NCBI GenBank assembly: GCA_965178125.1
Contig: OZ237756.1
Coordinates: 310,001-374,000 of the forward strand
DNA length: 64,000 bases
From: Bilabrum cf. latius
Taxonomy: Eukaryota
Direction of reading: 5' to 3'
The notes under the pieces were generated by a model, which saw nothing but the letters and a program-made list of their open reading frames with translations, did not search any database and was not told where the DNA came from. Positions 32,818 to 54,713 of the stretch are shown here, one piece after another. Made by a program: the position numbers and the translations under genes. Position 1 is the stretch's first letter. Each line of letters starts with the position of its first letter.

Positions 32818-33873
32818 ATGAGTAGCGCCTTTGAAAGAATATTACAATCCCTAAACATTTATCCCAACAGTCGTATTGTAAATTTAATGAAACGACCAAA
32901 ACGACCCAAAGGAGTAAATCGACCCCACGTAAATGTACCAGAACCTCACCAAGTGGTACAAATGGATTTATTATCATTACCCCACGACAATAATTATAAA
33001 TACGCATTAACTGCTATTGATTTACATACAAAGTAGGCCGATGCTGAACCGCTCAAAACCAAGCGTTAGAACGAAGTATTAAAGGCATCAAAAAAGATTT
33101 TCAATCGTGGTAATGTCCAGAAACCGCAGCACCGTTTGGAAATAGATAATGGAAAAGAATTTAACGCTTTACAAAGATATTTAGAAGAGACCGATGTATT
33201 TGTACGAAGAAATAAAGCAGGTCGCCACCGACAACAGGCATTAGTGGAAAACCTAAATAAAACGTTGGGAAAAGCCATATTTACCCTATAGAACGTTAAT
33301 GAGTTAAATACAGGTAATGAAAGCGTAGAATGGGTGGATATGCTTCCAAACATCATTGAAAACTATAATGAATATCAACTAGAAAAGTATATAGAAGAAC
33401 CACCTTTACCCCCAGAACACTTCGACTTTACGTAGTGTAAAGGAGACGCTTGTAATATATTGGAAGAGGGTACAAGAGTTCGTATACCATTAGAAGAACC
33501 CAGAAAGGCTACAAATTTACAGCAAAAATTATCCGGAAATTTTCGTGCTTCAGATTTACGCTATAATCCAGAAATCAAAACGATAACTAAAGTATTATTA
33601 AGACCGAGACAACCACCCTTATATGTTGTGGATTAGGATGATTTAGTGGCTTATCCAAAAGAGGAATTACAGATTATCGACTTTGATAATGAGGACAATA
33701 ACCGAGATGCTCAGACAATCTTTCTCCCAAAAAAAATAAAATCCGAGAACGAAACAGAATATCAAATAGAATGGAAAGATTTTCCAGAACCAGAACATTG
33801 GACGTGGGAACCAAAGAATAAAATCCAAGAAATTGCTCCTAATTTAATTTTGGAGTGGGATATAGAAAATTGA
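32818..33873 (+). CDS. retroviral-type (rve) integrase with C-terminal chromodomain, 351 aa
   Basis: Read through 5 TAGs. DDE motifs QMDLL, IDNGKEF and QQALVENLN, plus EWVDMLP. Chromo motif YQIEWKDFPEPEHWTWEP. Confidence 0.92.
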
Positions 33874-33930
33874 GATGCCCCGTATCGTACCTTAAGGATT
33901 ATTTTCGTATTCTATAGTACAACAACAAAA

Positions 33931-35592: not shown

Positions 35593-35649
35593 GTGAGTTC
35601 GTACCTTAAGAATAATTATCGTATTCTATAATATAATAGATACTATAGA

Positions 35650-37491
35650 ATGCCCGAAATCGATTTTACGGAACCCCAAAGAACCAAATTGCGTCTTAAT
35701 GGGAAACCAATATGGAGTATGCGATTTGAGAGCGAGGACCTTATCACCGTAAAAAATGTCTTGGAATTTATTCGTGATTACGACGATGGTGGTGAAAATC
35801 CGTTTGATGACTTTAAATTTAAGGTGAATATCAATTACCAAGATACAGGTTGGCGAACACGAAGCACTTGGATTACTACAGATGATTTAGAAAATCAAGA
35901 TAGTTTATGGGCGGGCTACGAAGACGACGATGACGACGAATATAGAAAATTGAATTCTTTTGAACTACTGCTTATTAGAAAGCCAGAACCAGAAGGCGGT
36001 GCTGACGAACATAACGATTGTTTATATAACGCTATAAAACAGGCTTTTCCTTTTTCAGTTGGTCGTAAGGTAAATGTAAAGAGCGCAAAAGGCAAATGGA
36101 AAACTACTATTAAAAGATTGTCGAAGTCCGACCTCAAAGAACTCTTGAAAATTGGACGTGATGACCCCGTTGATTACAGAAGAATACCAGAGATAGAAGA
36201 CGAACTTCAAGTACGCATTCATGTTGTAGGCGACTTTGAATACACATCTGGAAAAACTCATTTTGACCGTCTTCTAACTGTTTCATTAACAAATGGGCAT
36301 TACAAGTATGTTCCCCCCATTAGTTAGAAAGAATTATTTACACCGCCGTCTAAAGAACCGTGTACGCTAATTACCCGCTTGTATCAATCCGAGAATTCTT
36401 ATTTACTATTTGATGGAGACCGTGAGTATCAATCAGAAGGCATTACATCAGTTTCCAAGGATAAATTCATCTTTGAAGTCAAGTCCAAGGAAGAACTAAG
36501 AACAAAACACGAAGAACGGATGAAAAATGTAAGGGCATTAGCGAAGGAGACGGGTGGATATATGGATTTATCACGATTTATGTTTAGAACATCCCTATTT
36601 GTAAAGTCGTATTTCAGTAAGTTTTCCAAACTTTACCCTGCCGACCCGATTGACCAAGTTGAAGCACTATGGATTTCTAAAGCCTCGGGTGGTGGATTGA
36701 ATTGGGCAAACAAGAATACTACATTAAAAAACGCATACCAGTACGATATTAACTCATTTTATCCAAGTATTATGAAGGGTACATTTACATTTCCGGTTAG
36801 AAGGGGTAAGTTCGTAAAATTTGAAGTACCTTCAAGTGGTTTCTATCCGTACGGCATTTTTAGGGTACATATTGAAAATATCAATTCTAAATTGGTACAA
36901 AAAAGAAAAAACAATTATTATACCCAATATGACATTAACCGAGCGATTGAGACGGGCGCTTAGGTGTCTCTGATTGAAGACGGTGAAGCCAACGCTTTAC
37001 TTTACGATGAGACAACAAGGGTGAAGGCAAATGGACTGTTCAAAACGATGATTGAGCGATTGTACGGTTATAAAAAATAGGGATTGAAGTGTGCGAAGGA
37101 GATACTAAATAATATTTGGGGTTCTCTATGTTAGAAAAACACAATCACAAAAACACTCCGAGATGGTGATTGTATGAATTTTAGACAATTAAAGAACGCG
37201 TATCCTAAAGCATCTGGACGACTTGTATCGGGTATACTATATGACGAAGAGTACGATTACAAAACAGCCTACGCAAGAATGGGCCCCTTTCTGACTGGAC
37301 TTGGACGAAGTAAATTGTCCAAAATGATTGAGCCATATCTTGAAAACATTCACTATGTCAACACGGATGGTTTCATTAGTGAGAAAGAATTACCTCTAAA
37401 GTTATCAACGAACCTTGGGGGTATGAAGTTGGAGCAATCAGGTGAATGTCAAATTATTCACAGTAAGAAGAAAATTTTTAGAAAAGATTGA
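35650..37491 (+). CDS. protein-primed family B DNA polymerase with N-terminal vOTU-like domain, 613 aa
   Basis: Motifs YQYDINSFYP, KRILNNIWG and YVNTDG. The N-terminal region has GGADEHNDCLYNAI...LTNGHY. The three track ORFs are joined by TAG. Confidence 0.9.
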
Positions 37492-37492
37492 A

Positions 37493-37765
37493 TTAAATAG
37501 TCTGCTTTTCCTTTAGTCTCTAAATTTCCTATCGCAAACTATCAAGTTCATCCATAATATTAATTTGTTCCCTTTTTGTGTCTTCCTCTTTTTGAAGCCA
37601 ATCAAGGTGTTTTTTGGTTCTACAATGATGTGATTTATTGTACTTCTTATATACACCACCACAGGAACACTTTATCTATTCTCCAAGTTTTTCCTTGTTT
37701 TTCCGGTAGTATTCACGGGCATACAGCTTATCCTGTTCTTTTCTTTCTGAATGACTGAGTGTCAT
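37493..37765 (-). CDS. small zinc-ribbon/zinc-finger protein, 90 aa
   Basis: MTLSHSERK...IKCSCGGVYKKYNKSHHCRTKKH...; ends at TAA abutting the PolB stop. Confidence 0.8.
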
Positions 37766-37806
37766 TTTTGTATTCTATAGTATTATACTATAGAGTTAGA
37801 TTTAAG

Positions 37807-38448
37807 TCATACATTCTACCAAGCAATTTTTAGAGCATCACTTTTCCCATATCCTCTACCTCTTAACTACTGAGCGATTTTCATTGCTAGTTTTGCTTTT
37901 GGGTTTTTCCGACGGCGCCTCCCTTTTCCAGTTTTTTGTGGTTTAAAACTCTACTTCGCTCTTTCGTTCGAGCCCCAATCAGGCACTTCACCACCCATTC
38001 GCATTACTCTAGCCTATCTCGATGATAATAGTTCTTTCTAACTATTTCCCTTCTCTCTAGCATCAAAAAATTCACGCATAGTATCTCTCCGTTCTGACGC
38101 ATATTTTCTATGAATTGCCTAATTAAAATCATCAAGTGTTGTGTCGTGTTGCTCGTGTAGTGATGGTGATAAGAATTTTAGTATACCCACGTCATAATCA
38201 CCATCACTATCTTTGTCAATTCCTAGCGTATCAAATTCTTGTTCGGTCTTTTCGGCGAGCATTTCCATCATTTCCCTTTCCTAAGGGTTTACATATACAC
38301 GATTAGCGTACTTTTCCCCTATACTCTAGTGCTTCCTCAATCCTTTCAAAATTGCTAGTGCTTGTCTAGCGTCTTTCCCCAAACTCTGATGTGGCTAACT
38401 AGCCAGTAAATGTAGTTGTTCTTCGGTATAATCATCAACACCCGCCAT
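37807..38448 (-). CDS. virophage hypothetical (candidate core) protein, 213 aa
   Basis: MAGVDDYTEEQ... open only with TAG=Gln. Basic C-terminus KNPKAKLAMKIAQQLRGRGYGKSDALKIAW; TATAGTAAATG start context. Confidence 0.75.
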
Positions 38449-38468
38449 TTACTATACACAATCATAAA

Positions 38469-39725
38469 TTAATCATACGCAAACATTTTCCAAGCCTACT
38501 TAAGTGCTGTCTTCTTGGATATTCCTTTTCCTCTTAAAATGGACGCCATTTTCATAACTCTTGAACGTTTTGTTTCACACTGACATTGACCTCCAAATAT
38601 TTCCAGATACATACCCGATACTGGGTCATTCGTATGCGAATGGATTTCTTTCATAATTGGTCTTCCAACTGTTTTAGTTGCTAAATCCCAACCTTCCTTA
38701 AAATCTTGTCCAAAATCCCTTTCTGTGTTCTACTTATGCTTTTCCTAATTTTTTCTTAAAGCGTTTCTTACATCTTCCGGTAAATCATCTAAACCTCTCC
38801 CGAACCATTTGGAAAAATACCCAGCCACATCAGTAGCAGCATTAGCCACTCTCTTAGTAAATCCCGATACGTTCTTAGCAATACTCTCTACATCCTACAT
38901 AATAAATTGGTTTAAGGGTGGTGTCAAAAACCCATTTGTGCGTAGAACATCCTAAATGAACTTTTGACAATTCAACGAGAAAGCACGATACTAATAAAAA
39001 TTGTATTCTCCTATTTTCTGTAAAGTGGTTTCATATAATTCCCTTACTGTTTTCTAAGGTTTTCCATTAATATTTACTTCCATAGTTTGTGTTTTCTTGT
39101 TGGTGGAAAATCTTGAGGACAAATTAACCCTCTCATTCTTCTCAAGATAAATCTTTTTTCCACCTCCAAGGTTCAACTCTAAGGCTAAGTGAAAAAAATC
39201 ATTATATCCGTGTTTATTTTTTAACTTTTTCATTTTTCCAAGGGTAATCCAGTTAAGCAACCGATTAATCGCGCCACTAATGGGGGTTCTAATTACTTTC
39301 ATAGCTATAATTGTTCTATCCCCGTATTGCTGTAGTGTTCTCTGGACTTCGTTTGAATTCCCATACACTACTCCACCCTTAAGCTGTTGCGCCAGCTAAC
39401 TGCGCCGAGAGGGGGTGCTTCGCAAACCATCTTTTAAATACTAATGAAGTGTGTTGGATTGTGTGGATTTCTTCTAGGATTTCTTTTTTGGTTTTCCTTT
39501 TGTTCCCACACCATCTTTAAGCTGTTGCGCCAGCTAACTGCGCCGAGAGGGGGTGCTTCGCACACCATCTTCAAACTTAATTGCTTTTTCAAGGGCTTCT
39601 TTAGAATAAGGATGTTCACTTTTCCATGTCCTTGTTGTTTTACTCTTTGGTTCTTTGACACTAATGTACGTCTTAACAAAACCAGAATTCATTTTTCCGC
39701 CACTAAGTGTATAAAAACTATCCAT
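38469..39725 (-). CDS. virophage protein with permuted papain-like (His...Cys) domain, 418 aa
   Basis: One frame from ATG 39725 to TAA 38469. FFHLAL, LEKNE and YQYRAFSLNCQKF resemble PPPDE/LRAT-type H..NC motifs. Internal duplicated peptide DG(V/L)RSTPSRRSQLAQQLK. Confidence 0.7.
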
Positions 39726-39750
39726 TTAGTATAGGCTTGTATTAAAAAAC

Positions 39751-40368
39751 TCATAGACGACTTCCAAGACCGAAGGTTTTCCGGACGAATTCCTCCAGTT
39801 GCTAAAAGGATGAATAGACACAGTACTAACTCTAATGTAATCCAGCGATTAAATTCGTTCTTGAGCGTTCTACAGACAATAAGTCCCCCGATTTTTTCCC
39901 TTCACGGATTTCCTCAAAAAGACTGTGAGAAGGCACACACACAAAAATTGAACTTTCCTTAAATAAATCTTTCGCTAATTCCAACGAACCAACCATAACA
40001 ATTAAACGCCTGGATTTCTTTGTGAGCCAATCCGCTTTAATTTTTTCATACACTAATCTTGACTAAGAGTAATAAAAGAGACGGTGGGTGCTTTCATCAC
40101 CATCAATTAGCATTTTCTCCATTTTCTATTTTTCCTACCCTGAAATCTAACCATTTACGCATTCATCTAAGTCAATGACCAAAGTGTCTTTATCAACACT
40201 TTCTATAGAGCGACACAAAGTAGTTTTCCCAGAGCCTTTTGGAACAACCACGCAGGATTTCTGTTTCTAAGTTCCGTCTTTCGTCCACCAAGAATATAGA
40301 CACCGACTACCAGAATACATTAAAGGAGCCAAAGTCCCAGCAACCATTACAGCAGATGATACTGACAT
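39751..40368 (-). CDS. small P-loop NTPase/kinase-like protein, 205 aa
   Basis: VVVPKGSGKTTLCR followed by LVIDLDE; hydrophobic N-terminus; TGA stop. Confidence 0.75.
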
Positions 40369-40423
40369 TGTTTTGATATACTATATACCAAGACAAATAT
40401 TTATTGGTTTACCCTTTTCATAC

Positions 40424-42190
40424 TCAAGCTTGGAGCATAGCGAGTAATTGATTGCGAGAGAGAGATTTACCACCTGTTAATCCAGAACCCAACTTGGCAC
40501 CTGTTAAGCCCTTGCCTTTCTTGGTAGTTTTTCGGGGTTTCCTTTGGCGTCCCATACCAGCCATTTCACCCACCATTTTAGCGGTGTCAAATACCTACTT
40601 ACCATCCTTTAATACTTTTTTGAGATTGCCTTTCTTTACCCAATCAGCGGTTTTGTGTGCGAACTTTTTTAAGGCGTGTCTAATCTTTTTCCCAAGACCG
40701 CGACCGTGTAGTCCTGATAATTGACTTTCATATACTACGGGTAGTTTAGAGGCGGAAAGAACATCTGCCCGTGAGATGACACCCTGCTAATACTCAATCT
40801 TAGAACCATCAATCACATTCATTACTCCTTCGTACAATCCCACAACCACACACTACACATTTTGGTAATCTACAACATCATTATTCTTCACTCGTAGGGT
40901 GATAGACAATTGGTTAGAGCCGTTGCTTCCATTTGTCTAATCTACATCTAGGCTCAAATCCTTGGCGGGGTCGATGGAGAGAATTGCGCCTGATAGCACC
41001 CTATCCCCGAATTTACGCATAGCCCATTCCGCGTATTGCTATTCAAGTCCATTGCTTCTGGATAAGTCCCATAGCTACTGAGGTGAAGCATCTGCGAGTA
41101 ATCCACTTTGGTTATTCATCTCAATAGATATTCCCTCAATTCCAAGGAATGTGTTTCCCTAATCTACTGAGACGCTGGTAGGTGAGCGACGGGCAAACAC
41201 AAATAGACGAGATGGAACTGAATTGCTAAGTTTAATATTGTTGTTCGTAAGAGTTGCTGTTGTTCCTGCGCTGATTGTTGCACCATAGCTTTGAGTATAT
41301 GAAGTCATTTCAAAAATATCATAGGATACCTGTTTTGGAAGGACAAACCCTGTTTTAGGGGTAATCTATTCAAGGTATAAATAGGGGTTCTGGACATCTA
41401 CCGACTAAACGGTAGCAGTTAAGTCCTATTGTGGAATACGAGACCACACGGTTCTACTCAGTTGCGACCAATTGATATCCAAGGAAAGAGTTTCTAAACC
41501 GAAAATGGCTGGTTGTTCCTATTTACTTTCGTAATGGAAAGGTGGGCAAAGAACCGCCTCAGTACATTCAAAGACAAGAACACGATTTTGCGTTTGACCT
41601 GCGGGCACTGGAGTGTTATCCATTTGAACCAAGTTATAAAATCCACTTCCTCTTGCGGGTTGGTCCTAAAGCACGTCCTCATACGAAGCAAGAGCGTTAT
41701 TTGTAGCCTAACTCATCATCGCGTATGAAGGCACATTGTCGCGTCTATACACACTATCAAGGCAATTCACACGATGAACATCATCATCTAAACAATGGGA
41801 CACTACGTCCATTATTTCCGCGTTATTCTAAGTAAAGCGAATGTTATTGATACCAACTGTCTGTGTTGCAATGGAGCGATTAAGTGGATATGAGCGTGGA
41901 GCATCGTAATCTGGTGTAAATGGTACGAGAGCACCTGCGGTTTGATTATTCACGGAAAAGGTAATGGAAAAACGGCAAGACACGTATGCGCGGCGGCATA
42001 AACCTACACCTGAAGGCATACTAATATTCCAATTCACACCTGAATTATAATTACCGGCTGAACCAGATGGAGCGTATCTGCGAAACGTTCGGTTCTCATA
42101 ACCTTCTTGAACTTCATAAGGCTTTGGTTGTACGTCTAATGTTGCGGGAGATACTTTGACTGGCTGAAGGGCAAATGTATTCAATGACAT
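40424..42190 (-). CDS. virophage double-jelly-roll major capsid protein, 588 aa
   Basis: Resembles Sputnik-type MCP from recalled motifs (DAPRSYPLNRSIATQTVGINN, NNAL...PARGS, C-terminal GLTGGKSLSR). Many in-frame TAGs; TGA stop. Confidence 0.9.
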
Positions 42191-42295
42191 TTTTGTTTTC
42201 CTTGTATATTATATACAACGAATAAAATTCTATCACTCAGTTCTTTAGAAAAGAACGCAAACTCGTTTCTTCATAAAAGTAATACAAAACTAATT

Positions 42296-43405
42296 TCACT
42301 TCCGTTTCTTAAATAAAAACTTCACACTCACACTTCCGTGGCGTAAATAAAGAGGTCTTAGATTTGAATAATTGTCTTTCCAATATAGATTAAACTAAAT
42401 CCTATCTACTGAATGTGTATCTAAAAAATCAATTTCGTGGAGAATATGGGGCTGGTATTGAAGAACCTACTAATTAACTGTTTCAGTATCATCTAATACA
42501 CAATCCATATCCACTAATAAACTCTCGGTCCCTGAACCTGAATTTTGAACTGTATTAGTGGATTGTCCATAGGCGGATTTCTAGGATATTGCCTCACTCC
42601 TCACTGGAAGACTTGAAGATGTGAAAACTATTCCGCGAAAAATCTAAAACTACACTAAACTCCCTCGTTCCTAGGTCATCATTAATCTGTAGTCTCCCGT
42701 TGGGTTTCCCTCGAAGTATGCCTAAGGTTCATATTTTCCAACAGAAGAGCCATCATCAAATAAAACATTCGTTCCTAAGGATTTGAATAGAATGCTTGCG
42801 TATAAGTCGTCATCTTGGATATCCATTCGTTCCATAGGAAAACCCGTCATCAGTTCGTTAAGGGCTTCGTTCAACACTAATTTAAATTTCTGTCCTGAGT
42901 TTTCCTCGTCGTAATCGGGATTTGCTACTAAACTGAACTTTCCATCTTTAAAGAGTAAAACCGGAACTGATGTAATATCCGCTGATAAAGCATTCTATAT
43001 GGTTTCGTTGAATAAATCAACAAAATGCTACACGGAATACATATAATAATAAGGAACAAACTACATAGGATTGGAAAATGATGGTTGGTTTTCCCCTGTT
43101 AACTAGGGTCTCCACTGAATGCTTGAGGTCCACAAACTTACTCCGTCTTCATCTGTAATGCTTATTCTATACACCGTTTGATTAGGATTTGAAGATGGAT
43201 TTTTCACTTTATCGGTTTCTATGTGTGGAACCCATAAAGGTATTGAATTGGTGCTTATGGAAAACCGGAATACTGACATCGTATAATCACCAACATCCTT
43301 ATCTAATAATGGCTACTTGCGGGTTTCGCTATAGGTCGCTGGTTGGAAAGTATCTTCGTTATTTCGTATGTTTGCGGTAATGTAAAATCGGTCTGGAGAA
43401 CTCAT
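42296..43405 (-). CDS. virophage penton (minor capsid) protein, 369 aa
   Basis: N-terminus ATYSETRKQPLL...DYTMSVFRFSI...IPLWVP and C-terminus PLYLRHGSVSVKFLFKKRK; lies directly upstream of the MCP. Confidence 0.85.
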
Positions 43406-43461
43406 TTTACTATAGACGTTTATAATTATGGGGTGGGTTTGATTACTTTTCTAAAGTATAA

Positions 43462-43953
43462 TTAAGATGGTGTAATAAGTGAACCTGACACTAAGGATTT
43501 CCAACTAGATGTAGAAGAACTGCCAATCGCCACATAGACATCGTTGTCGCTTCCATTATACACTAAAGCGCCCTTGAACTTTCGCTCTGCTGACGTATTA
43601 ATAGGGGTAGAAGCGTCAGCCAATGTAGCTCCAGCAACCTCACTCAGCCCAACAACACCCTCTTGAGAAGTCTTGAATGAACCAACTAGTGAAATATCGC
43701 ATCTTTCTCCTTCTTCGCTCATACTGAACTGACAACCAGCAGACGCTCCGTTTTTTCCAAACCGTAGAACAGTTTCACCCCACTCCATATAAGGCTCTCC
43801 GTCTTTGAATTCAATACTTGGATTGCCTATGACTGCTCCCGTAGAGTTAGTAATTGCGGACACTTTAATTGCGTCGCTACTCACAACATTACACGTAATA
43901 GTTTGAGACATAAGGTCTAGACTGTTCTTAGATAGAAGATTTGAAACTGACAT
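43462..43953 (-). CDS. virophage hypothetical protein (possible fibre/spike), 163 aa
   Basis: ATG-to-TAA ORF MSVSNLL..., Ser/Gly-rich and beta-like, next to the penton. Confidence 0.7.
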   Translation of the reverse strand: MSVSNLLSKNSLDLMSQTITCNVVSSDAIKVSAITNSTGAVIGNPSIEFKDGEPYMEWGETVLRFGKNGASAGCQFSMSEEGERCDISLVGSFKTSQEGVVGLSEVAGATLADASTPINTSAERKFKGALVYNGSDNDVYVAIGSSSTSSWKSLVSGSLITPS

Positions 43954-44018
43954 TTTATAGTATATCCACAGAAATAATTTTTATCAGGTTGCCAAAAGAT
44001 GTAAATAAGAGGTTTTGG

Positions 44019-45200
44019 TCAATCTTTTCCTAAAAGATGTAATAGTTCCATAGCAACCTAATGATGAATATCTTTATCGGCTCCTTTTACTTTCTTGGCT
44101 ACATTCATTGCTGTATCATAGATAATCCTTTTTCCACCTCGTAATCCTTTCCCCTTTTTTGGTTTTCCACTTTCTTCTACAGTCATTGCGCGTGATGGTG
44201 GGTCTTCTAAATCAGGCTACTAAATTCCATAGGGCGGACTAAACCCCGTAAATCGCTACACAGGTCTAGTAGCACGTTTTCCAATTCCCTGCTCAATTTC
44301 TATCCTACTCGGCATATCATAGTACTCACCAGTTTCTGGGTCCCACGCCCCCGGAGTGCTTCCTTGCGGTAGTGGTCTTTCATTGCTCGCTGCGGCTAAT
44401 ATGGCATCTAAGTCTTTTGATGTTTTTGACGCATTACTACTTGAACCCTCTTGAAAATGCTAAAACATATTTGTCTGCCCCTGTGATGTTCTTTGTGAGA
44501 AATTCTTTCCCTATTCTAAATCCCACGCTATTCGTTGTTTTTCAGTTAAGGGTCTGTCTTGTTGTATTCTTTCTCTGGCTCTTTCCAATAACTATTTATA
44601 CGCACCCGAAGACCTTTTTGGAAGCTGTACTTGTGTTGGAGCGGAAAACGTGTTTCTTCTTGTTGTTCGAGCAGGTGTTTGTAAAGATGTTGGCTACTAA
44701 TCAATTCCCAACATTCCCTACGGTATTCGTTGTCCGGATGCCTCCTATATAACTTTCCCTAATTCTAAGAGTTGTTTTCTGTCTTCAGCTGGAACTCTCT
44801 GCAGTCCTTCGTAGCCTTTCCTTTGAAATCTCTCAATATTTACGTATTGACGGGCTAGTTGTTGCTTCATTTGTGGAGACATATTGATATTACCAACAAA
44901 ATCCTTCAATGCTTTCACTGCTGGACTTACATTTTTACCCTCAATAATACCTTTCATTATACCAGATATTGACTTAGATATGATTTCCTCGTTGCTTTGG
45001 TCTGCCTATTTTCTCTACGCTGGAGTTCCATACCTTCCACTTTCTTTTAATCGTTCAATTTTTGCCCTTTTCCTTATAAAATCACTATATTCTGTTTCTA
45101 AATCTACGTCGTCCCTTGCCTGTAAATCTAACATTTTAGCATTGTCCAGTTCCCTTTCTAGGGCTTGCTGAATAAGAGCATTCACTTTAGCAGTTTTCAT
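44019..45200 (-). CDS. virophage hypothetical (candidate core) protein, 393 aa
   Basis: One frame through TAGs to TGA 44019; TATAGTAAATG start context; C-terminal KGKGLRGGKR. Confidence 0.75.
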
Positions 45201-45263
45201 TTACTATAAGCTTTTATAAAAAGCTTGACCAAAAAATAAAAAAAAGTGTTTGTGTATAGTATA

Positions 45264-45503
45264 ATGGATATTGATAAGTGGATTATATAGAGAACCAAAC
45301 AACTCGCGCTATAGAAAGAACAAGACGCTTTAAATAGAGTTAAAAACAAACATATTAAAGTTGGAAAAGGCCGTAGTAAGCCTAAGCGGAAAGTGAGCGC
45401 CAAAATGAAACGCCGCAATAAACTTGTAAAAATGGTGATGTAGTAGACTGGTATGAGTTTACCTCAAGCAAGTCGGTATATACGAGAATAGAATATTATT
45501 TAA
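45264..45503 (+). CDS. small basic virophage core-like protein, 79 aa
   Basis: MDIDKWII[Q]...GKGRSKPKRKVSAKMKRRNKLVKMVM[QQ]TGMSLPQASRYIRE[Q]NII-TAA; upstream GTATAGTATAATG. Confidence 0.75.
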
Positions 45504-45532
45504 AGAAACTTTTATAACAAGTTTGACCAAAA

Positions 45533-46154
45533 TTACATAAGGTAAGCCTACTTTTCTCCTAATAAATACCTCGGGTAATTCCTGTGGACACATACCCACC
45601 TAGAAGGCATTTTTAAGACTTTAGAGATTTCTTGTTTCTCAAGTCCTATATAATTTTTTAGTAAATACCTTAGAGAATGTGCGGAAGAACACTAAGGGAA
45701 TATAACGAACTTATGACTTTCCGCAAGAATAATTCGGGTACTTTTATAGTTGGTAGATAAATGACTTGTGATTAATACAGAAGTATTCGAATGTCTTCCA
45801 ACCTACAATATTTCATCCTGTAAATGATTGAGGGCTTCCCTTAACTTCTTATCTTTGATTGTATCAATATCATCCAAGATTACTAAGGCGTCCCTTAATT
45901 CCTAATGAATATCAATCGGGTTCTCCACCAGTTCCTCATTTAAAATAATCCTTTTCAGTCCTTTCACTTCATCTAAGACTTTATCCTACTATACTCGTGA
46001 AAATAAAATAATTCTCCTGTTTGGAAACATTCTGTGATAATTCTTAGCATATTTGGAAACCCAAGTAGACTTCCCAGCACCTGATGGTGCGGTGATATAA
46101 ATGACCTCTCTTCCTTTTGGATTTGGTAATGATTGGAATTCACCCTATTTTAAT
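45533..46154 (-). CDS. packaging ATPase (A32/FtsK-HerA family), 3' part; interrupted by Ngaro
   Basis: Walker A YITAPSGAGKST, Walker B LVILDDID and GRHSNTSVLITSH; TAA stop. Confidence 0.92.
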
Positions 46155-46238
46155 TGAACTCTGCTGCGAATCAATGAGTGCTCCTTCTACATGCCCAATG
46201 GCCAAATCACGGACCCGCTCCCACAGTTGGGGCAGTTC

Positions 46239-46241
<3 letters not shown>
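46155..46241. repeat. Ngaro repeat B2 (87 bp)
   Basis: Matches 46979-47065. Confidence 0.95.

Positions 46242-46304
<63 letters not shown>
46242..46304 (+). repeat. 63-nt poly(A) tract between A2 and B2
   Basis: Homopolymer seen directly. Confidence 0.95.
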
Positions 46305-46305
<1 letters not shown>

Positions 46306-46348
46306 AGGACGTCCCTGCGCCCGTCCCGCGCCCTCTCCCCCCCACGAG

Positions 46349-47065
46349 GGACAGTCCGCCCCGAATCGACTGGTTCTCCTCAGTCGCGTCTCGCGCATGC
46401 TATACCACACTCGCCACAAATGTACACGCTACCCCAATCCTTGCATCGTCTGCGCCTCCAGGCTCGCTCCGATGCCTCCCCTTCTAGTCCTGCCCCATTC
46501 TGATCTGCTGTCTCCCTACGCACCCGTACGTCTCAGCCTTCGCCAGAAATCCTACTGCCTTGTGGTCTGGCCCCACTCGGCTGCCTCCGCTGCCCCTCCC
46601 TCCCCATGGGCCTCCACGCTCCCGAGCCCTACTGGCTTGCTCGGGCCTGTCCGTGCCCCTTCGTCGTCCCCGCCACGCGTCTGGTTAACCGCGCTCGGGG
46701 CATCCCGATCCTCCCCTTTCCTCCGTTCATCTTGGAATCCCCCTCTCCGTCGCCTCCCCCGGTGCCACCCGACCCCTTGGTGGGCCGCCGCCCGTCCACC
46801 CTGTCACCTCCGCCAAGCTCCCCCGTCTGCTCCTGTCCCCCTCTCACCTGGCCCCCTCGCTGTCACCTCCCGCCGTTGTTGTCCTCCACCTGCACGTGCG
46901 CTGCTGCTGTACCCTCCCCGTCGGAGCCCCCATCGCTGTCTCACAGCCCTCAATCCCAATGTCTGATGACACAGATAATGAACTCTGCTGCGAATCAATG
47001 AGTGCTCCTTCTACATGCCCAATGGCCAAATCACGGACCCGCTCCCACAGTTGGGGCAGTTCCAT
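46349..47065. repeat. Ngaro repeats A2 (46349-46978, 630 bp) + B1 (46979-47065)
   Basis: A2 matches 54084-54713 and B1 matches 46155-46241. The junction GATAA|TGAAC equals the joined element ends. Confidence 0.95.
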
Positions 47066-48228
47066 TACTTTCCAATACTTGCAGCAGTTGCAGCGTGGTC
47101 CAGCGCTGCCGTCCACACCCGTGTCGGCTGAGTGAGGTCAACCGAGGAGGGGAGTGGCAGGGGCCGAAGCGCGAAGATGTTCTCGTTCCGGTAGCGGCGG
47201 GCTGCCACCAGAGTCTTCCAGGCACCCGCGCGCATGATGGTGTCGTCCGAGCAGCCCTGCCTACTCAGTGTGGTGATGGCCGTCACGCGCAGGGAGTGGC
47301 CCGACAGGTGCAACTGGGGCCGACCGCAGCACCGGCGAAACTCCGCGATCACTGTAGCCGCCCCGCATCGGGCTGGTGCGAACAGGTACGCTGGTCCAGT
47401 CGATGGGCGGTGCTCGAGGAATCGGCGTAGAGCCGCCACCGATGCGATGCCATGTGCGGCGCGCAGGTACTCCAGCAAGATGCGGACACCGCAAAAGCGG
47501 GCGCCGTGGGGCTGGCCACCGACGTACCGCACCGGACGGACGCTGCTCAGCATCAGGGAGCGCGTGTCCCGCGACTTGTTGGGTCCCAGCAGGATCTCGA
47601 TGGAGCTGACGGCACCGTCCGAGTCCACGCCCACCACCAGGTGGCCCCGTGCCATCCCGCGCTGCTCGTCACCCACAGTCGCCTGGGCGATTTCGCCCAG
47701 ACGTGCGGCGCTGAAGAAGGCTACAGCCGCTGCCGTGCGAGCCGCGTGCTCCTAGGGTCCCCGTGGCCGTGCGGTGAACCACACAGCGAGCCGATGCAGG
47801 TCAGCCGGGTGCTTGCGCCCAGAGGCGGCCTTGGAGGCCACCGGGCCGCCCGGTGCCGCTGCCCTGGCCATGTGGGTGGCGAAGTACGACAGCAACGAGC
47901 GCAGACGCTTGGACTGGCCACCCGGCAGGCCGTGCAAGATCACGAACGCCCTGAACACGGTGCTGACGTATGAGCGCAGAGTCGGTCCACCGATCGTGCC
48001 CGTGCGGTCCTCGCCGCGCCACACCGCGTACCTGCAGCACGCGATGTCGAGCGCCCGTTGCGCCCTCAGTGGGTCCTCGTAGCCTGCACACGGGTCCTCG
48101 GCTTCCCCGCGGTCCCGACGGAATTGTTCGAATCCACGGAGGGCTGTAGCCCCTGAAGCCAGACCTTTAGCGCCACCGCCCGAGAGCGCCCGAACCGTTG
48201 CATACACGTCCAGATCCACGGCGGACAC
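47065..48228 (-). CDS. tyrosine recombinase (Ngaro ORF3); start uncertain
   Basis: Catalytic pattern AFFSAARLGE (R), NKSRD (K), SGHSLR (HxxR) and GAWKT...RRY (W,Y). One TAG is read through at 47752; TAA stop. Confidence 0.88.
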
Positions 48229-51200
48229 CGCGCCCGCTCCACCGTCTCGCCCCAGCGGAGGTAATGGCGAGGCGAGAAGTTCCGAGAGAGAGCGTCCGCC
48301 ACGAAGTTGGCCTTGCTGCTCACGTGCTGCGAGAAGAGCTGGAAGTCATGGCGTGTCACGGTAGTGAACAACGGCCCCAACAGTCTGTTGAGGCACAGGC
48401 GGCGTGCAGAGCCCTTGCGAAGAGAAGTACACACAGGCAGATTGTCCCCGTACACGGTCACGTTCCTGCCCGCGAGCTCCGGTGCCCACCGCTGCACGAG
48501 GAGCACCACGGCCGCCAACTCGGCTTGCGGCATCTGACTGGGGCCCACAGTGCGTGGCCAGAATCCCTGGACGAGGCGCCGGCCGCGATGACTATCGCCC
48601 GGAGTGCCGTACAGCTGCAGTGTCCCCCCGAACCCTTCCTTGCTGGCGTCCACGTACATCACTGCCCGAGGTCCCCGATGTGGGGACGTGGGGAACCGGC
48701 GTGAGCGGTTGGCCTGCACGCTGGCACGCAGGGTCCTGAGTGTGTCGAGGATCGGCCGGTCCAGCTGGTGAGGGCCCCCCCGCAGCGGCATGCGGTGCTG
48801 GGCACACTGCAGGAGCCCGAGCTGGGGCTTCAGGCACACCAATGCCCCCGCTGCAAACCCCAACTCTCCGATGACGGACTTGAACTCCAACGACGTGGAC
48901 ACCGCCCCGGCCTCGATGATGGATGTCAAGCGCTTCACCAGAGCCTCCTACTTGGCCTGCGGCAGGGCGATCCGCAGTGCGGCGAGGTCCAGCTCGTACC
49001 CGAGGTAGGTGAGCACGGAGCGGGGATGTTCCCCACGCGCCTTGGACCGTGAGATGGGGAAGCCCAGGTACTCAGCCTCGGACATGAGCTGAGCCGTCAT
49101 CCATGGGGCCCGGGGTGCGGCAGCGAGAAGCAGCTGGTCGTCGCTGAAGACGGTGGTTGCACACGGCGCGCGCGGGAGGGCGAAGCTGCAACGCTCACGG
49201 AATCTGCGGTTGAAGGCGGTGCTGGTTAGACAGGCCCACCCCGGCGAGGACGCCGAGCCCATGCTGAGGACAGCGTAGAGAGCTGCCCGGTCCCCCGTCT
49301 TGGACCACATGTGACACGCGTCCGCCAGCCGAAGCTTGAGCGAGAAGAACCACTTGGAGAAGTCAATGGCGGCACCATGCATCGCCACCCCTGCTGGAAG
49401 CTAGCGGTGGAACTTCACGGCCTCCTTCATGACCACGGTGATGTCGTCGAGCAAGCACGGCGTGTACTGCCGGTAGTCCACAAAGCCATTCACGCCCTTC
49501 CCCGTGGTGGAGCTCTCGCGGGCGGACGCGTCCACGATGGCGCGATACTGCCCTGCGGCCTTCTTGGCGATGTAGCTGGTGAACGAGATGCGAGATGGCG
49601 GCACCTCGTGCTCGGCCAGTGGCACGATCCAGCCGGCACGGACAGCGGCACCGTGCGCCAGCTCAGCATGAGTGCGCGTGGCAGCGTCTGAGTAGCGTGT
49701 CTGCTCCACCGCCGCGTCCCGTGGACTGCCCGCGCCGGGGTCAGTGCAGAGTGGGAAGCCGTAGCGGATGCCGGCCACGGCCGCCTCATACAGAGACAGC
49801 GCCTGCCAAGCCGCCGGTCCCCGAGGTTCCGTCGGGGGACAGCGCACGCCGAAGAAGGACTCCAACCGGCGCAGACGAGCGCCCGTGCAGCGGTGGCCCC
49901 GGACAGAGCCGCGGGCGATGGCCACGTCAGCCATCGGGTCGAGGAGCAGTCGGTGTCTGGCGAACTCAGCAGCCGGAGCTGAGGACACGCGGCGCAGCGG
50001 CGCGGAGGTGAAGTCGGCCAAGCGGGTGGAGGGGATGTCCTCGGCCGTCCTGGCTGTGGGAAGCGGCGGCTCCGCAGCAGCGGCGGCAGCCATGCGGTGC
50101 AGCACTCGAGGCAGCGTGGAGCGTTGCCACGTTGCCCGGTCGCGACGTGCACGGTCCTGCACAGCAGGGTCCAGCAGAGAGGGCACCGGCTTCAAGCGGC
50201 GGGAGGAGCTAGCGATCGTCGCGGAGAGGCCGGCTGCCGTCAGGTGTGCCTGGGATGAGGCAGGACCCGTCCTGGTGATGGCTAAGTCCGAGGCGAGATC
50301 CGACCGTGCTGTCTGCCCGACCGCGCGTCCCTGCCAGGGCGCCACGCGAGCCCCACCAGCATGGCTGACACCGCCCGCCATGATCTCCTGCCTGCTCTCG
50401 ACTCCGCCACCACGGCTGACACCGTCCTCCACGATCTCCTGCCTGCTCTCGACTCCACCACGGCTGACACCGCCCTCCACGATCTCCTGCCTGCTCTCGA
50501 CTCCTCCACCACGGCTGACCCCGCTCTCCACGATCTCCTGCCTGCTCTCGACTCCTCCACCACGGCTGACCCCGCTCTCCACGATCTCCTGCCTGCTCTC
50601 GACTCCTCCACCACGGCTGACACCGCCCTCCACGATCTCCTGCCTGCTCTCGACTCCTCCACCACGGCTGACACCGTCCTCCACGATCTCCTGCCTGCTC
50701 TCGACACCTCCACCACGGCTGACACCGTCCTCCACGATCTCCTGCCTGCTCTCGACTCCTCCACCACGGCTGACACCGCTCGCCACGATCGCCTGCCTGC
50801 TCTCGACTCCTCCACCACGGCTGACCCCGCCCTCCACGATCTCCTGCCTGCTCTCGACTCCTCCACCACGGCTGACACCGTCCTCCACGATCCCCTGCCT
50901 GCTCTCGACTCCTCCACCACGGCTGACACCGTCCTGCACGATCTCCTGCCTGCTCTCGACTCCTCCACCACGGCTGACACCGCCCTCCACGATCGCCGGC
51001 CTGCTCGCGACTCCTCCACCACGGCTGACACCGTCCTCCACGATCGCCTGCCTGCTCTCGACGCCGCCAGTGCCGCTGATATGGTCCGCCCCGACCGCAT
51101 CACGTGCACCCCTGCGGTTCGCCGCGGAGTTGGTGGCGGCAAGTGCACGATGGCCGGCCCGGTGGGCCCGTGACCATAACGTCGGCAATTTCCAAGATGA

Positions 51201-52094
51201 CCAGAAGCGCCCCCTGGCTTGGGGCGCCGTTGCATTGCGTGGCGGTCTGTACGACCGCCCCCGCACCTCAGCCCCTCCGTGCCGAGGTCTACAGATCTGC
51301 CCGGTGGGCAGACTGGGTCCCTCCTTCCCTCCCGCCCCATCCTCCGTTGGGGCACGAGTGAGCTTCGCCTCTCCAGTGAGGCTAGCTGCCGCAAATTGCA
51401 ACGAGGCACCCGAGGGCACCTGCTGCGCGGGAGTCGATCCTGTCACTCCCCAAGCCGCGTCCTGCAGTGCAGCATCCTCCCCGTGCTGCCCGCCGAGCCC
51501 CCAGCCCCCCGCTGTGGCCCTCCCATTCCACGTGACCGGTGCTGCCGGCCACCACGTCGATCCAAATGTCAAACTGCCCCCCCAGCCCCAGGTCTGTCCC
51601 CACGGACCCTGCCCAGGCCATCCCCCCCATCGCCAGCACCCACCGGCGCCATCCCCCGCAGGGGCTGCACCCCCCCACGGTGCACCCCACGGAGATGGCC
51701 AGCCGCGACCCCACCGGCGCGCGGCTGCACCCAGGACGGGGAGACGGCCACATGGCCGCCACCCCGCCGCCCGTGCATCCCGCGTGCGCCCTGCCACCCG
51801 CTCCACCGGCGCCCCGTCAGCGCACCCCATCATCTCGCCGTCCGCCGCCCCCCCGGCGGCCCTCCGCACCTCGCTGCCCGCCCGCACCACCACCGCTGCC
51901 GCCGGTCCCGCCGCCACCCCGGCGTCCATCCCCCCCGCCCCTGCCGCCCGCGACGCCCGCGCCCTCACCGCCACCTCCCCGGCCGCCGCCGCCACCCGGC
52001 GGATGCCAGCGCCCGTCCTACGCCGGCATCGCCTCTGGTGGCGACGGCGGAGGCCGTGCCGAGCGTGAACACCCAGCGCGGCCCCCTTGGCTAG
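48066..52094 (-). CDS. reverse transcriptase + RNase H (Ngaro ORF2) with long N-terminal repeat region
   Basis: Frame open through TAGs at 49401 and 48948. RT motifs YRAIVDAS, IDFSKWF, LSMGSASSP, FSDD and YLGYELD; RNase H motifs YVDAS, QAELAA, GDN and NFVADALSR. Confidence 0.88.
50361..51069 (-). repeat. 51-bp coding tandem repeat, about 14 copies, in Ngaro ORF2
   Basis: Encodes GGGVESRQEIVEDGVSR variants; one unit is 3 nt shorter, which keeps the frame. Confidence 0.95.
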
Positions 52095-54077
52095 TCAGTC
52101 ACCGAAGATGGACCGCCAGTCGCGATCCACATTGGGGGTGCCGTCGGCGCGGCGCCGCGACGTGTCCGGTTCCGCATCGATGTCGGCCACTCGCTGCATG
52201 CACTCGACCAGCAGTCCAGGGACACCGTTCACGGTGTCGAAGGGGGCCAGGAGCCGGGTCAGATCGGCGTGAGGCAGCGGAGAGGTGGCCGGGTCACGCC
52301 ACCAGCGGCTGCCCGCTGCCCACGCCGCGCAGCTGCGGAGGCGATCACCCGCGCGCAGCACGTTCTAGCCGGGGGTGAGCTCGGAGCCCGCCGCGGTGTC
52401 ATACACCCAGCACATCACCTGCTCCGGGACCGAGGTGGCCTGCCGGAGGGGAGTGGTGGTCCCCACCGTCGCGACCATCCTTGCCATGGAGCTCGAGCGG
52501 GCCCACAGGTCACCCACCGTGCCCAGCTCCGGCGTGGCCAGGTCACGGCTGCGAGGGGCGCCTGGCTGCGAGGCGTGCCCGATGAGCGTGCGCCGCATGG
52601 CCAGGGCTTGGCACGACCGATGCACCCAGATGCCCTGCACGACTGCTGCCAGCTTGCCCGAGCCGCTGCCTGCCCCCGCCCGGAGCAGCCCGATGGTGGC
52701 GTACGGTTCACGCCGCTGCAGGGCGGACCCCAGGGCTGTCACCGCGGTGACGAAGGAGGCCAGGGCTGCCTTGCCCGCAGATGGGGCCTTCAGGGCGCGC
52801 TCGCCGGCCTTGCCACCACACACCGCGTCCACCATGGCAGCCAGGACGTCAGCGAACTAGGCAGGGCAGCGCAGGGGCTCCAGCGTGAGCAGCCTGAGGT
52901 CGTGCTCCAGAGCCGCACGAAGGAAAGTGCGGACCCCCTCGCGCACGAGGCGGCTGTCTGGGGGCGGCGCGGCCCCCGTGGCGTCGATCAGTGCGGCCGT
53001 CGTGTGAGCCAGCGAGGTGCCTGTGGGGGAGCTAGAGGGTTCAGGGACGGAGCCAGCCGTGACCGTGTACGTGGGGGGACAAGCGTCGGTTGCAACCGTC
53101 TCACCGGGGGGTTGGGCCGCCGTGGGCCGGGGGAACGCCGCCGCCTCGCCCATAGCGACGAGGAGCGGTAAGACGGAGCCGCCCTCCAGCGGGCGCTTGC
53201 GGTACAGGTCAGTGGCCTGCTGAGCCAGCTCCTGGATGGCGTCGCGTGGGGCCATAGCTGCCAGCATGTGGAACAGACCGAGCGGGGCTGCGGGGCCGGC
53301 GGAGTACTTCAAGCCGCGCAGAATGACCTCAGCCCAGAGTGCCGGGACTCCGGTCTACAGGCGAGTCTGGAGCCGGCGGGCCGCCTCGGCGAACTCGGCA
53401 CGATGGACGTCAGGTAGCGGCGGCAGGGGCCCACTCAGGGCGGGCAGCGAGCCCACATCGATGACCAGCAGGAAATCACCCATCAGCGCCGCGGCGTTGG
53501 CCAGCACGGAACGAGCGGGCCCGCGCCCAAGTGCATGCCCCGCCGACTTGCCCAGAGCCACAGCCTCATCGTCATCCGCTTGGCCCAGCGGGATCCCATC
53601 CAAAGAGCCGGCGTCCGCGTCCGGCACGGCGTCCGCCTTGGGCAGCTGAATGTCCTCACAGATAGAGTCGAGGCGCGTGGACAGCAGCGGAAAATTTGCA
53701 TGCGTCACGGTCAGGAATGAAGTAACGTAGTCCCGAATCTCCGTCTGCAGGGCTTCGAATTCCGCGGACCCCAGGCTTTCGGGATCGATGGAGGCCAGCG
53801 CGATGGTCATGTCGCCAAGTCGGCGCGTCGCCCAGCGGTCATCCCAGAGGCAACGAGGCTCCGCGTCCCCAGACGATTTACTCGAGCGAGCAGCAGTCGA
53901 ATCAGCTGGAGCAGCTGCGTCTGGCACTGCGGTTTGCAGCCACTTCACTGTCAACGGACCGGACAAGTCTTGCAACGGGGCCAGGATTAGCCGAAATGCC
54001 TCACCAGCCCGCCCTGTGCGGAGTGCAACCTGTACAGGGGCAACATATTCAGCCATTCCCGTAGCTGCAGAAGACAT
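52095..54077 (-). CDS. Ngaro ORF1 (gag-position protein), 660 aa
   Basis: Four track ORFs in one frame joined by TAG; ATG directly after repeat A1; TGA at 52095. Confidence 0.75.
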
Positions 54078-54083
54078 AGCTGC

Positions 54084-54713
54084 GGACAGTCCGCCCCGAA
54101 TCGACTGGTTCTCCTCAGTCGCGTCTCGCGCATGCTATACCACACTCGCCACAAATGTACACGCTACCCCAATCCTTGCATCGTCTGCGCCTCCAGGCTC
54201 GCTCCGATGCCTCCCCTTCTAGTCCTGCCCCATTCTGATCTGCTGTCTCCCTACGCACCCGTACGTCTCAGCCTTCGCCAGAAATCCTACTGCCTTGTGG
54301 TCTGGCCCCACTCGGCTGCCTCCGCTGCCCCTCCCTCCCCATGGGCCTCCACGCTCCCGAGCCCTACTGGCTTGCTCGGGCCTGTCCGTGCCCCTTCGTC
54401 GTCCCCGCCACGCGTCTGGTTAACCGCGCTCGGGGCATCCCGATCCTCCCCTTTCCTCCGTTCATCTTGGAATCCCCCTCTCCGTCGCCTCCCCCGGTGC
54501 CACCCGACCCCTTGGTGGGCCGCCGCCCGTCCACCCTGTCACCTCCGCCAAGCTCCCCCGTCTGCTCCTGTCCCCCTCTCACCTGGCCCCCTCGCTGTCA
54601 CCTCCCGCCGTTGTTGTCCTCCACCTGCACGTGCGCTGCTGCTGTACCCTCCCCGTCGGAGCCCCCATCGCTGTCTCACAGCCCTCAATCCCAATGTCTG
54701 ATGACACAGATAA
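54084..54713. repeat. Ngaro repeat A1 (630 bp)
   Basis: Direct repeat of 46349-46978; both give identical 189-aa translations in the ORF track. Confidence 0.95.

Follow-up and report, generated by a model that had tools for sequence, protein, structure and literature searches.

A candidate UGA-CUAG readthrough signal between ORF1 and the polymerase frame of a Ngaro retrotransposon in an integrated virophage

Introduction

How is a polymerase produced when its coding region shares its frame with the preceding open reading frame (ORF) and is separated from it by a single stop codon? This question is raised by a retrotransposon in a 64,000-nucleotide stretch of DNA from Bilabrum cf. latius (Eukaryota), which corresponds to positions 310,001 to 374,000 of the forward strand of contig OZ237756.1 in NCBI GenBank assembly GCA_965178125.1. 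This whole stretch is hereafter called the window. The element, on the minus strand from position 54713 to 46155, is by its repeats and gene content an intact, recently inserted Ngaro-type tyrosine-recombinase retrotransposon (DIRS order). Its first frame, ORF1, ends with UGA followed by CUAG, and the frame for reverse transcriptase (RT) and ribonuclease H (RNase H) lies downstream.

An earlier reading of the sequence, referred to below as the original prediction, had taken UGA-CUAG as a readthrough signal that fuses ORF1 to the RT-RNaseH frame. From the follow-up analysis presented here, we consider it probable that programmed UGA readthrough, stimulated by the CUAG context and a 3′ hairpin, yields a minority fusion product consisting of ORF1, a linker, RT and RNase H.

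Results

A single UGA codon separates ORF1 from the polymerase frame

The end of ORF1 reads as it had been described, with GGT GAC TGA CTA GCC AAG on the minus strand at 52103 to 52086 (preceded by TTC and followed by GGG). The features that define the junction are as follows.

52098–54077, minus strand: ORF1, 660 codons, in the ‘Gag’ position, with its ATG at 54077, three in-frame TAG sense codons and codon periodicity.
52095–52097, minus strand: the UGA that ends ORF1 and is proposed to be read through, kept in the identical contigs of runs X2 and X5 and marking the end of protein P0005.
48069–52094, minus strand: readthrough frame (ORF2), 1342 codons, in ORF1's own frame and ending at TGA 48068–48066.

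The RT frame had been described as continuing in the frame of ORF1 for about 4 kb, and it does so for 4026 nt, or 1342 codons, until TGA 48068. Between 54137 and 48068, the stop triplets encountered in this frame are TAG at 53357, 52859 and 52367 (the three in-frame TAGs of ORF1), TGA at 52097, TAG at 49403 and 48950, and finally TGA at 48068. ORF1 extends from ATG 54077 to 52098, and ORF2 is open, because TAG is a sense codon here.

This assignment for the host is well supported by the reading frames of the window. With TAG as sense, the window has ORFs of 2783 and 2460 codons, which carry 30 and 22 in-frame TAGs, respectively. Among the 15 long ORFs whose stops were examined, 12 end in TGA and three in TAA; TGA is the usual stop in the window, and TAA is rare. 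The original prediction had noted that UAG readthrough is unavailable in this code, which holds because TAG is sense and occurs up to 30 times per ORF. In translations, Q was used for TAG as a placeholder only.

ORF1 itself has no in-frame TGA or TAA, whereas the remaining two frames of the minus strand hold 21 and 14 TGAs within it, and its GC content by codon position (0.72/0.57/0.78) reveals a clear periodicity. When ORF1 of the window is compared with that of a copy in run X8 (97–98% identical), 13 of the 19 listed differences fall at third codon positions, and ORF1 is by its pattern of substitution under purifying selection. In two further copies (X2 record 5 and X8 record 26), TCG takes the place of the in-frame ORF1 TAG at 52859 (T>G on the plus strand at 52858).

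A Pfam search with ORF1 returned no match, and a search with full-length ORF1 gave nothing, no homologues being found beyond near-identical copies. The single-sequence AlphaFold model of the protein is all-helical, with a pLDDT of 39.1 that is too poor for use. That ORF1 acts as Gag is an assumption made from position only. Distant RT relatives with long N-terminal extensions (P0142 and others) have no recognisable Gag domain in these extensions; one has a NADAR domain.

A known readthrough context and a stable predicted hairpin follow the stop

Three elements were recognised immediately downstream of the UGA.

52087–52094, minus strand: 8-nt spacer CUAGCCAA, whose first four letters, CUAG (52094–52091), are the readthrough context.
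52049–52086, minus strand: predicted hairpin of 38 nt and 16 base pairs (8 + 8, interrupted by a single-nucleotide bulge in either arm and capped by a UUCA loop), at −29.6 kcal/mol.
51985–52048, minus strand: second, extended stem adjoining the hairpin; the minimum free energy and centroid folds of 148 nt agree on it.

The statement that UGA-CUA(G) is an established readthrough context is borne out by the portions of the literature drawn on here. UGA-CUAG is described as the context that drives efficient readthrough in vertebrate genes (PMC4132726), and UGA-CUA as one of two consensus readthrough contexts found in alphaviruses and in several genera of plant viruses (PMC3159437). The spacers that precede stems at readthrough sites measure 7 to 12 nt, most being 8 or 9 nt, and the spacer before the pseudoknot of MuLV is 8 nt long, according to the same portion of the latter source (PMC3159437). 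At the ORF1 junction, TGACTAG is one of only three occurrences on both strands of the 64-kb window.

It had also been suggested that the GC-rich sequence 3′ of the stop could form a stimulatory stem. Such a fold was indeed found at 52086–52049, at −29.6 kcal/mol and after a spacer of 8 nt. The predicted 148-nt fold has a free energy of −97.2 kcal/mol (z = −4.19), and none of 200 dinucleotide shuffles was as stable. Along the sense strand of the element, only four of 8522 segments of 38 nt equal the post-stop hairpin in stability, and these lie in two places, namely here and at about 51771. When only segments with a GC content of at least 0.74 are considered, the count is 4/1514. Thus counted, the post-stop hairpin ties for the most stable local fold of the 8.5-kb element. 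The other, equally stable fold spans 51725–51780 on the minus strand (−38.5 kcal/mol for 56 nt) and lies inside the linker.

The site combines a UGA followed by CUA(G), a stable predicted stem about 8 nt after the stop, and an in-frame downstream ORF with an essential product, as readthrough signals do. The sequence TGACTGACTAG at 52091–52101 of the minus strand places the stop-type triplets TGA, TGA and TAG in three frames within 11 nt, of which TAG is sense in the host.

The frame past the stop is open and partly coding-like

Ribosomes that passed the UGA would translate a long linker and then the polymerase. The parts of this frame, given in the order in which they would be translated, are as follows.

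51450–51794, minus strand: linker stretch of 115 codons rich in Trp and Gly, with 16 W and 13 GW/WG.
50356–51069, minus strand: tandem array of 14 units of 51 nt, encoding the 17-residue unit GVSRGGGVESRQEIVED; one unit is shorter by exactly 3 nt.
49389–50315, minus strand: conserved pre-RT region of ORF2, recognised by alignment with P0011, P0016 and P0017 and by coding-like codon periodicity.
48990–49388, minus strand: RT core (RVT_1, residues 903–1035, E 4.9e-4, below the gathering score).
48408–48662, minus strand: RNase H domain (RT_RNaseH, residues 1145–1229, E 0.0032, below the gathering score), also aligned to the distant element L001.

The 2-kb linker contains no in-frame TGA or TAA, versus six and three in the other minus frames. 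An equally open frame is uncommon among dinucleotide shuffles (P 0.046 for the first 1023 nt, and P 0.018 for 1284 nt without the tandem array). From 51794 to 51450, there are 16 in-frame TGG codons, compared with one and six in the other frames, and 13 GW/WG dipeptides, compared with 3.3 expected; none of 2000 dinucleotide shuffles reaches 13. This composition resembles that of the GW ‘hooks’ that bind Argonaute. The GW/WG-rich stretch is not common to the linkers of L001 or P0011.

From about 51800 downward the frame bears a coding signature, which the first 300 to 600 nt after the UGA lack. For translation of the stretch after the stop, the evidence is mixed over roughly the first 600 nt and good beyond. 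A plus-strand ORF at 49768–52068 was considered as a real antisense gene and rejected: it has no Pfam match, its score over the array is lower than that of the minus frame, and its third codon positions are in register with those of the latter, which is what a shadow frame would show. A protein search with the junction-spanning translation gave no scoring match, as low-complexity words swamped the search.

Farther downstream, the identity of the polymerase is clear. The HMMER scan of 1.84 billion representatives yielded 996 RT relatives at E ≤ 0.001, and the DD and DAS columns are invariant in RT-RNaseH alignment A1. No relatives of the RT protein appeared in viral contigs or in the first metagenome scan. 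For the query 50354–48069, the alignment with protein P0011 (45% identical) begins at residue 14, and those with P0016 and P0017 begin at residues 70–76. Homology extends from 50315 downward, and therefore ORF2 cannot begin at ATG 50093 or 49934. The related proteins P0017, P0159 and P0161 have in-frame repeats of their own at the place of the tandem array, with units of 21 residues in three or six copies.

The stop codon is kept in identical and near-identical copies of the element

Contigs of four runs, which are DNA or of unknown kind, were compared with the window over 51110–54083 only, a span chosen to exclude both the array and the 630-nt repeat. Among the runs listed as carrying the element, none is of RNA. 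No meaning attaches in this comparison to uncovered parts or to the ends of contigs at 52094/52096 in X8 and X6. A sense codon at the position of the UGA in other copies had been named as an observation that would speak against readthrough. The readable contigs (X2 record 4 and X5 record 13), which come from runs of two organism labels, are identical to the window across the stop and keep it, and X2 may be the window's own source. P0005, a 99%-identical ORF1 fragment from another assembly, likewise ends at the same ...SIFGD residue.

A divergent copy (X2 record 5, about 81–84% identical) differs in length between ungapped anchors that together span the stop. It has 73 nt in place of 106 nt (−33) and 336 nt in place of 255 nt (+81), and both of these differences are multiples of three.

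The TGA could also be a nonsense mutation in a dead copy, and only one copy is present in the window. We regard this as the least probable of the explanations weighed here, on several counts. The split repeats of the element are 100% identical, the stop is kept in the identical X2 and X5 contigs and in P0005, ORF1 is under purifying selection, the distant family described below has a stop at the same junction, and the specialised CUAG context and the hairpin flank the stop.

A distant family has the same layout with UAA in place of UGA

A metagenome scan with P0161 recovered a whole related element in a 6679-nt contig, L001, whose RT-RNaseH is 34% identical over 618 residues (E 4e-74). TAG is sense in L001 as well, with 10 TAGs in 1539 codons. 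ORF1 of L001 (336–2249, 638 codons) has no detectable similarity to that of the window element and ends with an RG-rich tail, which the latter does not have. A single in-frame TAA (2250), followed by C, comes next, and the frame continues past it for 1177 codons with an Arg-rich stretch, six 63-nt repeats and RT-RNaseH. From the stop to the start of RT homology, there are no in-frame stops versus 2 and 14 in the other frames.

The most stable 40-nt segment of the L001 contig begins 41 nt after the T of the TAA, and the next distinct one begins 8–9 nt after it. In the predicted fold, the first stem starts after a 9-nt spacer. The stems of the two elements are not alignable, and the stops differ (UAA versus UGA). 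Two contigs from other samples, L003 and L004 (99% identical), keep the TAA, and their number of repeats varies in frame. L005 and L006 contact the L001 family only at a contig end and are uninformative on the junction. At 2250–2256, L001 reads TAACATGA, in which an ATG lies one base after the stop; it opens a 70-codon ORF only, in the +1 frame.

It had been proposed to examine whether TGACTAG and the frame relation are conserved in other copies and families. The stop is kept in the identical contigs and the frame relation is kept in L001, whereas the seven letters are not, as L001 has UAA-CAUG. TAA might itself be sense in the host of L001, where one TAA stands against 10 TAGs and a rough estimate from NNA/NNG codon pairs gives two to eight TAAs as expected. 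In that case, L001 would be a true ORF1-polymerase fusion, and as such would still mark the fusion as the functional product.

The L001 family also bears on the idea that the UGA is bypassed by other means, with an intron or editing removing or changing it or with a dedicated Sec-like or Trp-like tRNA decoding it. The host has already reassigned TAG and has, in this respect, unusual termination machinery. Moreover, strong structure beside a UGA is a feature of some dedicated decoding systems too. We judge such a bypass very unlikely, since a TAA at the same junction of L001 does not fit a UGA-specific tRNA and the long uninterrupted ORFs of the host suggest few introns. In addition, no contig of the four runs, which are mostly or wholly DNA, joins across the site, and the joints listed belong to the divergent copy, in which sequence is replaced and not removed.

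Possible starts of ORF2 downstream of the UGA

The original prediction had the RT frame continue with no nearby ATG, and this part did not hold. In-frame ATGs after the UGA occur at 51929 (the 56th codon), 51833, 51830, 50381, 50093 and 49934. ORF2 could therefore start independently of ORF1, as could the corresponding frame of L001. Several observations weigh against readthrough as the source of the polymerase, and they are given here together with two rival explanations.

Some concern the signal. The base after the stop is C in four of 14 listed TGA stops, which means that ordinary genes do not avoid it, and strong hairpins are likelier at the junction because the local GC content peaks there. 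CUAG is not common to the L001 family, which has UAA-CAUG instead. Others concern the frame that follows. The sequence from 52094 to 51072 is without codon periodicity (GC 0.745/0.745/0.739 by codon position), codon-usage scores are poor in all six frames over 52100–51500, and the plus-strand frame 49768–52068 is likewise open. In the divergent X2 copy, the 21 listed differences within 51392–51524 are distributed 7/8/5 over codon positions 1/2/3, with third positions not in excess. Finally, in-frame ATGs are present 56, 88 and 89 codons past the UGA, and the first Met in the L001 frame is found about 50 codons past its TAA.

The lack of periodicity in 52094–51072, the poor scores in six frames and the open plus-strand frame would fit a view in which the 2 kb past the UGA are an untranslated spacer with a satellite-like array. 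In that case, the open frame would be a by-product of G-rich, stop-poor composition, and ORF2 would start at ATG 50381, 50093 or 49934. From ATG 50093, it would have 675 codons, which is an ordinary size for an RT-RNaseH ORF. We consider this explanation highly improbable, and less credible than a bypass of the stop. Homology with P0011 begins well upstream of ATG 50093. In-frame repeats occur at the same place in P0017, P0161 and L001, with copy numbers that vary by whole units. The TGG phasing is reached in 0/2000 shuffles, the open frame has P values of 0.018–0.046, and the indels of the divergent copy are multiples of three.

The main rival is a start of ORF2 at ATG 51929 (or 51833/51830), reached by reinitiation, internal entry, an internal promoter or a separate RNA. 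No recoding would then be needed, and the shared frame, the CUAG and the hairpin would be coincidence or would serve another purpose. The three ATGs are in frame, and the position of the first in-frame Met of L001, about 50 codons past the stop, is similar. Every in-frame signal of the linker, namely the phasing of the GW dipeptides, the repeats and the −33 indel, lies downstream of 51929. The 55 codons from UGA to ATG are too short for a test of openness, with one TGA there in the other two frames.

An independent start nevertheless asks for a series of coincidences, and we think it unlikely. Two families with unrelated ORF1 proteins would share the frame relation by chance (1/9), CUAG would follow the UGA directly by accident, and in both families the strongest or second-strongest hairpin would happen to lie 8–9 nt past the ORF1 stop. 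Moreover, the +81-nt difference of the divergent copy falls within 51766–52020, a region that spans ATG 51929, and yet keeps the frame.

Classification and boundaries of the element

The element is 8.56 kb long. A self-comparison of the window revealed the repeat layout of the minus strand to be A1-[ORFs]-B1-A2-(107 nt)-B2, which is the Ngaro arrangement. Both repeat pairs, A (630 nt) and B (87 nt), are 100% identical. The boundaries and the remaining ORF are as follows.

54084–54713, minus strand: repeat A1 (630 nt), which forms the element's 5′ end and matches 46349–46978 at 100% identity.
47067–48345, minus strand: ORF for the tyrosine recombinase, which lies in the −1 frame with respect to ORF2, overlaps the end of ORF2 over some 280 nt and stops at TAA.
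46979–47065, minus strand: repeat B1, 87 nt, 100% identical to 46155–46241.
46349–46978, minus strand: repeat A2, the partner of A1.
46242–46348, minus strand: insert of 107 nt that separates A2 from B2 and closes with a perfect run of 63 T (A on the plus strand).
46155–46241, minus strand: repeat B2, the 3′ end of the element and partner of B1.

The 107-nt insert with its T63 between A2 and B2 is a departure from the textbook B1A2B2 junction.

All four structural features that were examined for membership in the Ngaro group agree, namely the type of recombinase, the order of RT and RNase H, the split repeats and the missing methyltransferase (MT) and protease. A methyltransferase-like domain is typical of DIRS1 and PAT-like elements. 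No Pfam family for such a domain or for a protease matched P0001–P0004 at E ≤ 0.1, a missing match being weak evidence, and rve (DDE integrase) had no Pfam match in the ORFs of the element.

The recombinase ORF matches the Pfam family Phage_integrase with 29.3 bits, above the cut-off of 27.1, and P0003 shows HSLR with an RY farther downstream. The first ATG in this frame, at 47871, lies past the stop of ORF2. A search of the overlap for a −1 frameshift site of the form X XXY YYZ found no such heptamer. The original prediction had contrasted the element with the overlapping ORFs typical of DIRS and Ngaro elements. This contrast stands for ORF1 and ORF2 and fails for ORF2 and the recombinase ORF, which overlap by about 280 nt.

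The element lies in an integrated virophage of a host that reads TAG as sense

The element has a GC content of 70% and is embedded in a block of 37% GC. This block encodes Sputnik-type major and minor capsid proteins, an rve-chromo integrase, a DUF5906/VapE helicase, a protein-primed polymerase B and a packaging ATPase, and it is therefore an integrated virophage.

32700–46154 and 54714 to about 56900: AT-rich virophage (about 37–45% GC), recognised by the gene content of the block.

The Ngaro insertion splits the ATPase gene of the virophage, and the flanks, when joined, form one continuous ORF.

TAG is commoner in virophage genes than in host genes, with 4–14 per gene and up to 3.5% of codons. 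The virophage, and presumably also its giant-virus helper, must be adapted to the TAG-sense code. The 13 TAG positions of the virophage capsid protein mostly lie opposite polar residues of Sputnik V20 and once lie opposite Q in mavirus, and these capsid alignments point to a polar residue for TAG. WW-domain and helicase motifs in host genes give conflicting hints on this amino acid. In one host gene, the 2783-codon ORF, a 60-nt tandem repeat of at least seven units is found at 13929–14481 (plus strand), with one in-frame TAG per unit. In the literature searched, no paper was found that combines endogenous virophages with the genetic code and UAG.

Discussion

A proposed mechanism for expression of the polymerase

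According to the mechanism that we favour, most ribosomes on the RNA of the element would terminate at the UGA of ORF1 (52097–52095), and a minority would decode this codon with a near-cognate tRNA. Decoding would be aided by the 3′ context CUAG and by the stem-loop 8 nt downstream, which would be located at the mRNA entrance of the ribosome. Ribosomes that move past the UGA would continue in frame and thereby join ORF1 to ORF2 in a fusion about 2000 residues long. Four sections would make up the portion that depends on readthrough: a low-complexity linker rich in Arg and in Trp-Gly, fourteen 17-residue repeats, the conserved pre-RT region, and finally RT and RNase H. What the sequence shows is the anatomy of the element, the frame relation, the open frame, the letters of the signal with their predicted fold, and a like layout in a distant family; we infer that readthrough occurs, and so too its efficiency, the identity of the amino acid inserted at the UGA and a Gag role for ORF1.

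It would thus be the stop codon that fixes how much ORF1 protein is made relative to polymerase, as in gammaretroviruses and alphaviruses. The original prediction had proposed that UGA readthrough sets the stoichiometry of the two products, and this proposal is supported as far as sequence analysis reaches by the kept stop, the frame relation in L001 and the predicted stem.

A broader proposal goes beyond the element itself. Ngaros of at least two families with unrelated ORF1 proteins, in a protist lineage that reads UAG as sense, could depend on reading through the remaining stops (UGA here and UAA in L001) to produce an ORF1-polymerase fusion, and the 700-residue part made only by readthrough could be a functional module instead of a spacer. 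We regard this as speculative and doubtful. If it were true, no recoding signal of this kind would have come earlier among tyrosine-recombinase retrotransposons. The 700-residue module, with its 13 GW/WG motifs in 115 residues and its fourteen 17-residue repeats, could then bind the small-RNA silencing apparatus of the host, act as a decoy for it, or direct insertions into the DNA of virophages.

With a readthrough signal of such textbook features, the DIRS/Ngaro class would gain an expression mechanism that is defined and open to test, and signals of the UGA-CUAG/stem-loop type would reach beyond viruses of animals and plants and genes of vertebrates to a retrotransposon of a protist. In a host where UAG is reassigned, the element would show which stops are still usable for recoding, and it could serve as a natural reporter of termination fidelity in a variant-code eukaryote. 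In the Ngaro/DIRS literature that was searched, no account of a readthrough or stop-codon mechanism or of polymerase translation was found; the primary Ngaro papers of 2004–2005 were outside this search, and an earlier mention is possible.

Comparison with known systems

The closest known carriers are the Ngaros found in endogenous virophages (EMALEs) of Cafeteria burkhardae. As here, these are GC-rich tyrosine-recombinase retrotransposons with the layout A1-[ORFs]-B1A2B2, and they carry an ORF1 that is ‘Gag-like’ by position, an ORF2 for RT-RNaseH and an ORF3 for the recombinase, inserted in an AT-rich integrated virophage (PMC8547959). The element of the window is inserted inside the virophage ATPase gene, and the Cafeteria Ngaros insert into endogenous virophages (PMC8547959). 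A retrotransposon in the packaging ATPase gene of an integrated virophage represents parasitism in three layers of the Cafeteria type, in an apparently different host. The host of the window reads TAG as sense, whereas the portions of the Cafeteria paper drawn on here mention no variant code, and these portions are likewise silent on readthrough or translation of ORF2 (PMC8547959). At 8.56 kb, the element also exceeds the typical size of about 6 kb (6–7 kb in the methods) reported for Cafeteria Ngaros (PMC8547959). The larger size is due to the 2-kb linker with its repeats.

With regard to the signal, the sites of alphaviruses, of tobra-, furo- and pomoviruses and of Drosophila headcase (UGA-CUA or UGA-CGG) have in common with the element a UGA followed by CUA, a spacer of 8–9 nt and a stem of at least 10 base pairs, in the portions of the source consulted (PMC3159437). 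In sites of the alphavirus and plant-virus type, a polymerase lies in frame downstream of the stop, as it does here (PMC3159437). The alphavirus-type stems close loops of 100–270 nt and are backed by covariation and reporter assays (PMC3159437), whereas the fold described here, a prediction made from a single sequence, consists of a compact hairpin of 38 nt and a second stem. Unlike the viral sites and Drosophila headcase, the carrier here is a protist retrotransposon integrated in DNA.

The vertebrate genes OPRK1, OPRL1, AQP4, MAPK10 and MDH1 have the same seven letters, UGACUAG, as the element (PMC4132726). In the portions of that source drawn on, 12 nt past the stop suffice for readthrough of these genes, and the extensions are short peptides (PMC4132726). 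The extension of ORF1, in contrast, is a 1342-codon polymerase frame, and a strong predicted hairpin follows the stop.

Gammaretroviral Gag-Pol (in MuLV, UAG followed by an 8-nt spacer and a pseudoknot) resembles the present arrangement in having one frame, one stop and a structure 8 nt downstream, and its product ratio is set at termination, as is proposed here (PMC3159437). The element differs from gammaretroviruses in that the stop is UGA in place of UAG, since the host reads the latter as sense; in that a predicted hairpin takes the place of a demonstrated pseudoknot; and in that neither a protease nor a DDE integrase was matched in its ORFs. Some LTR retrotransposons also make Gag-Pol by readthrough of an in-frame stop. 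By analogy, the mechanism proposed for the Bilabrum element would resemble that of the UGA-CUA plus stem-loop sites and of gammaretroviral Gag-Pol, and would differ from these systems in its carrier, in its variant-code host and in the long low-complexity linker that separates the stop codon from the polymerase.

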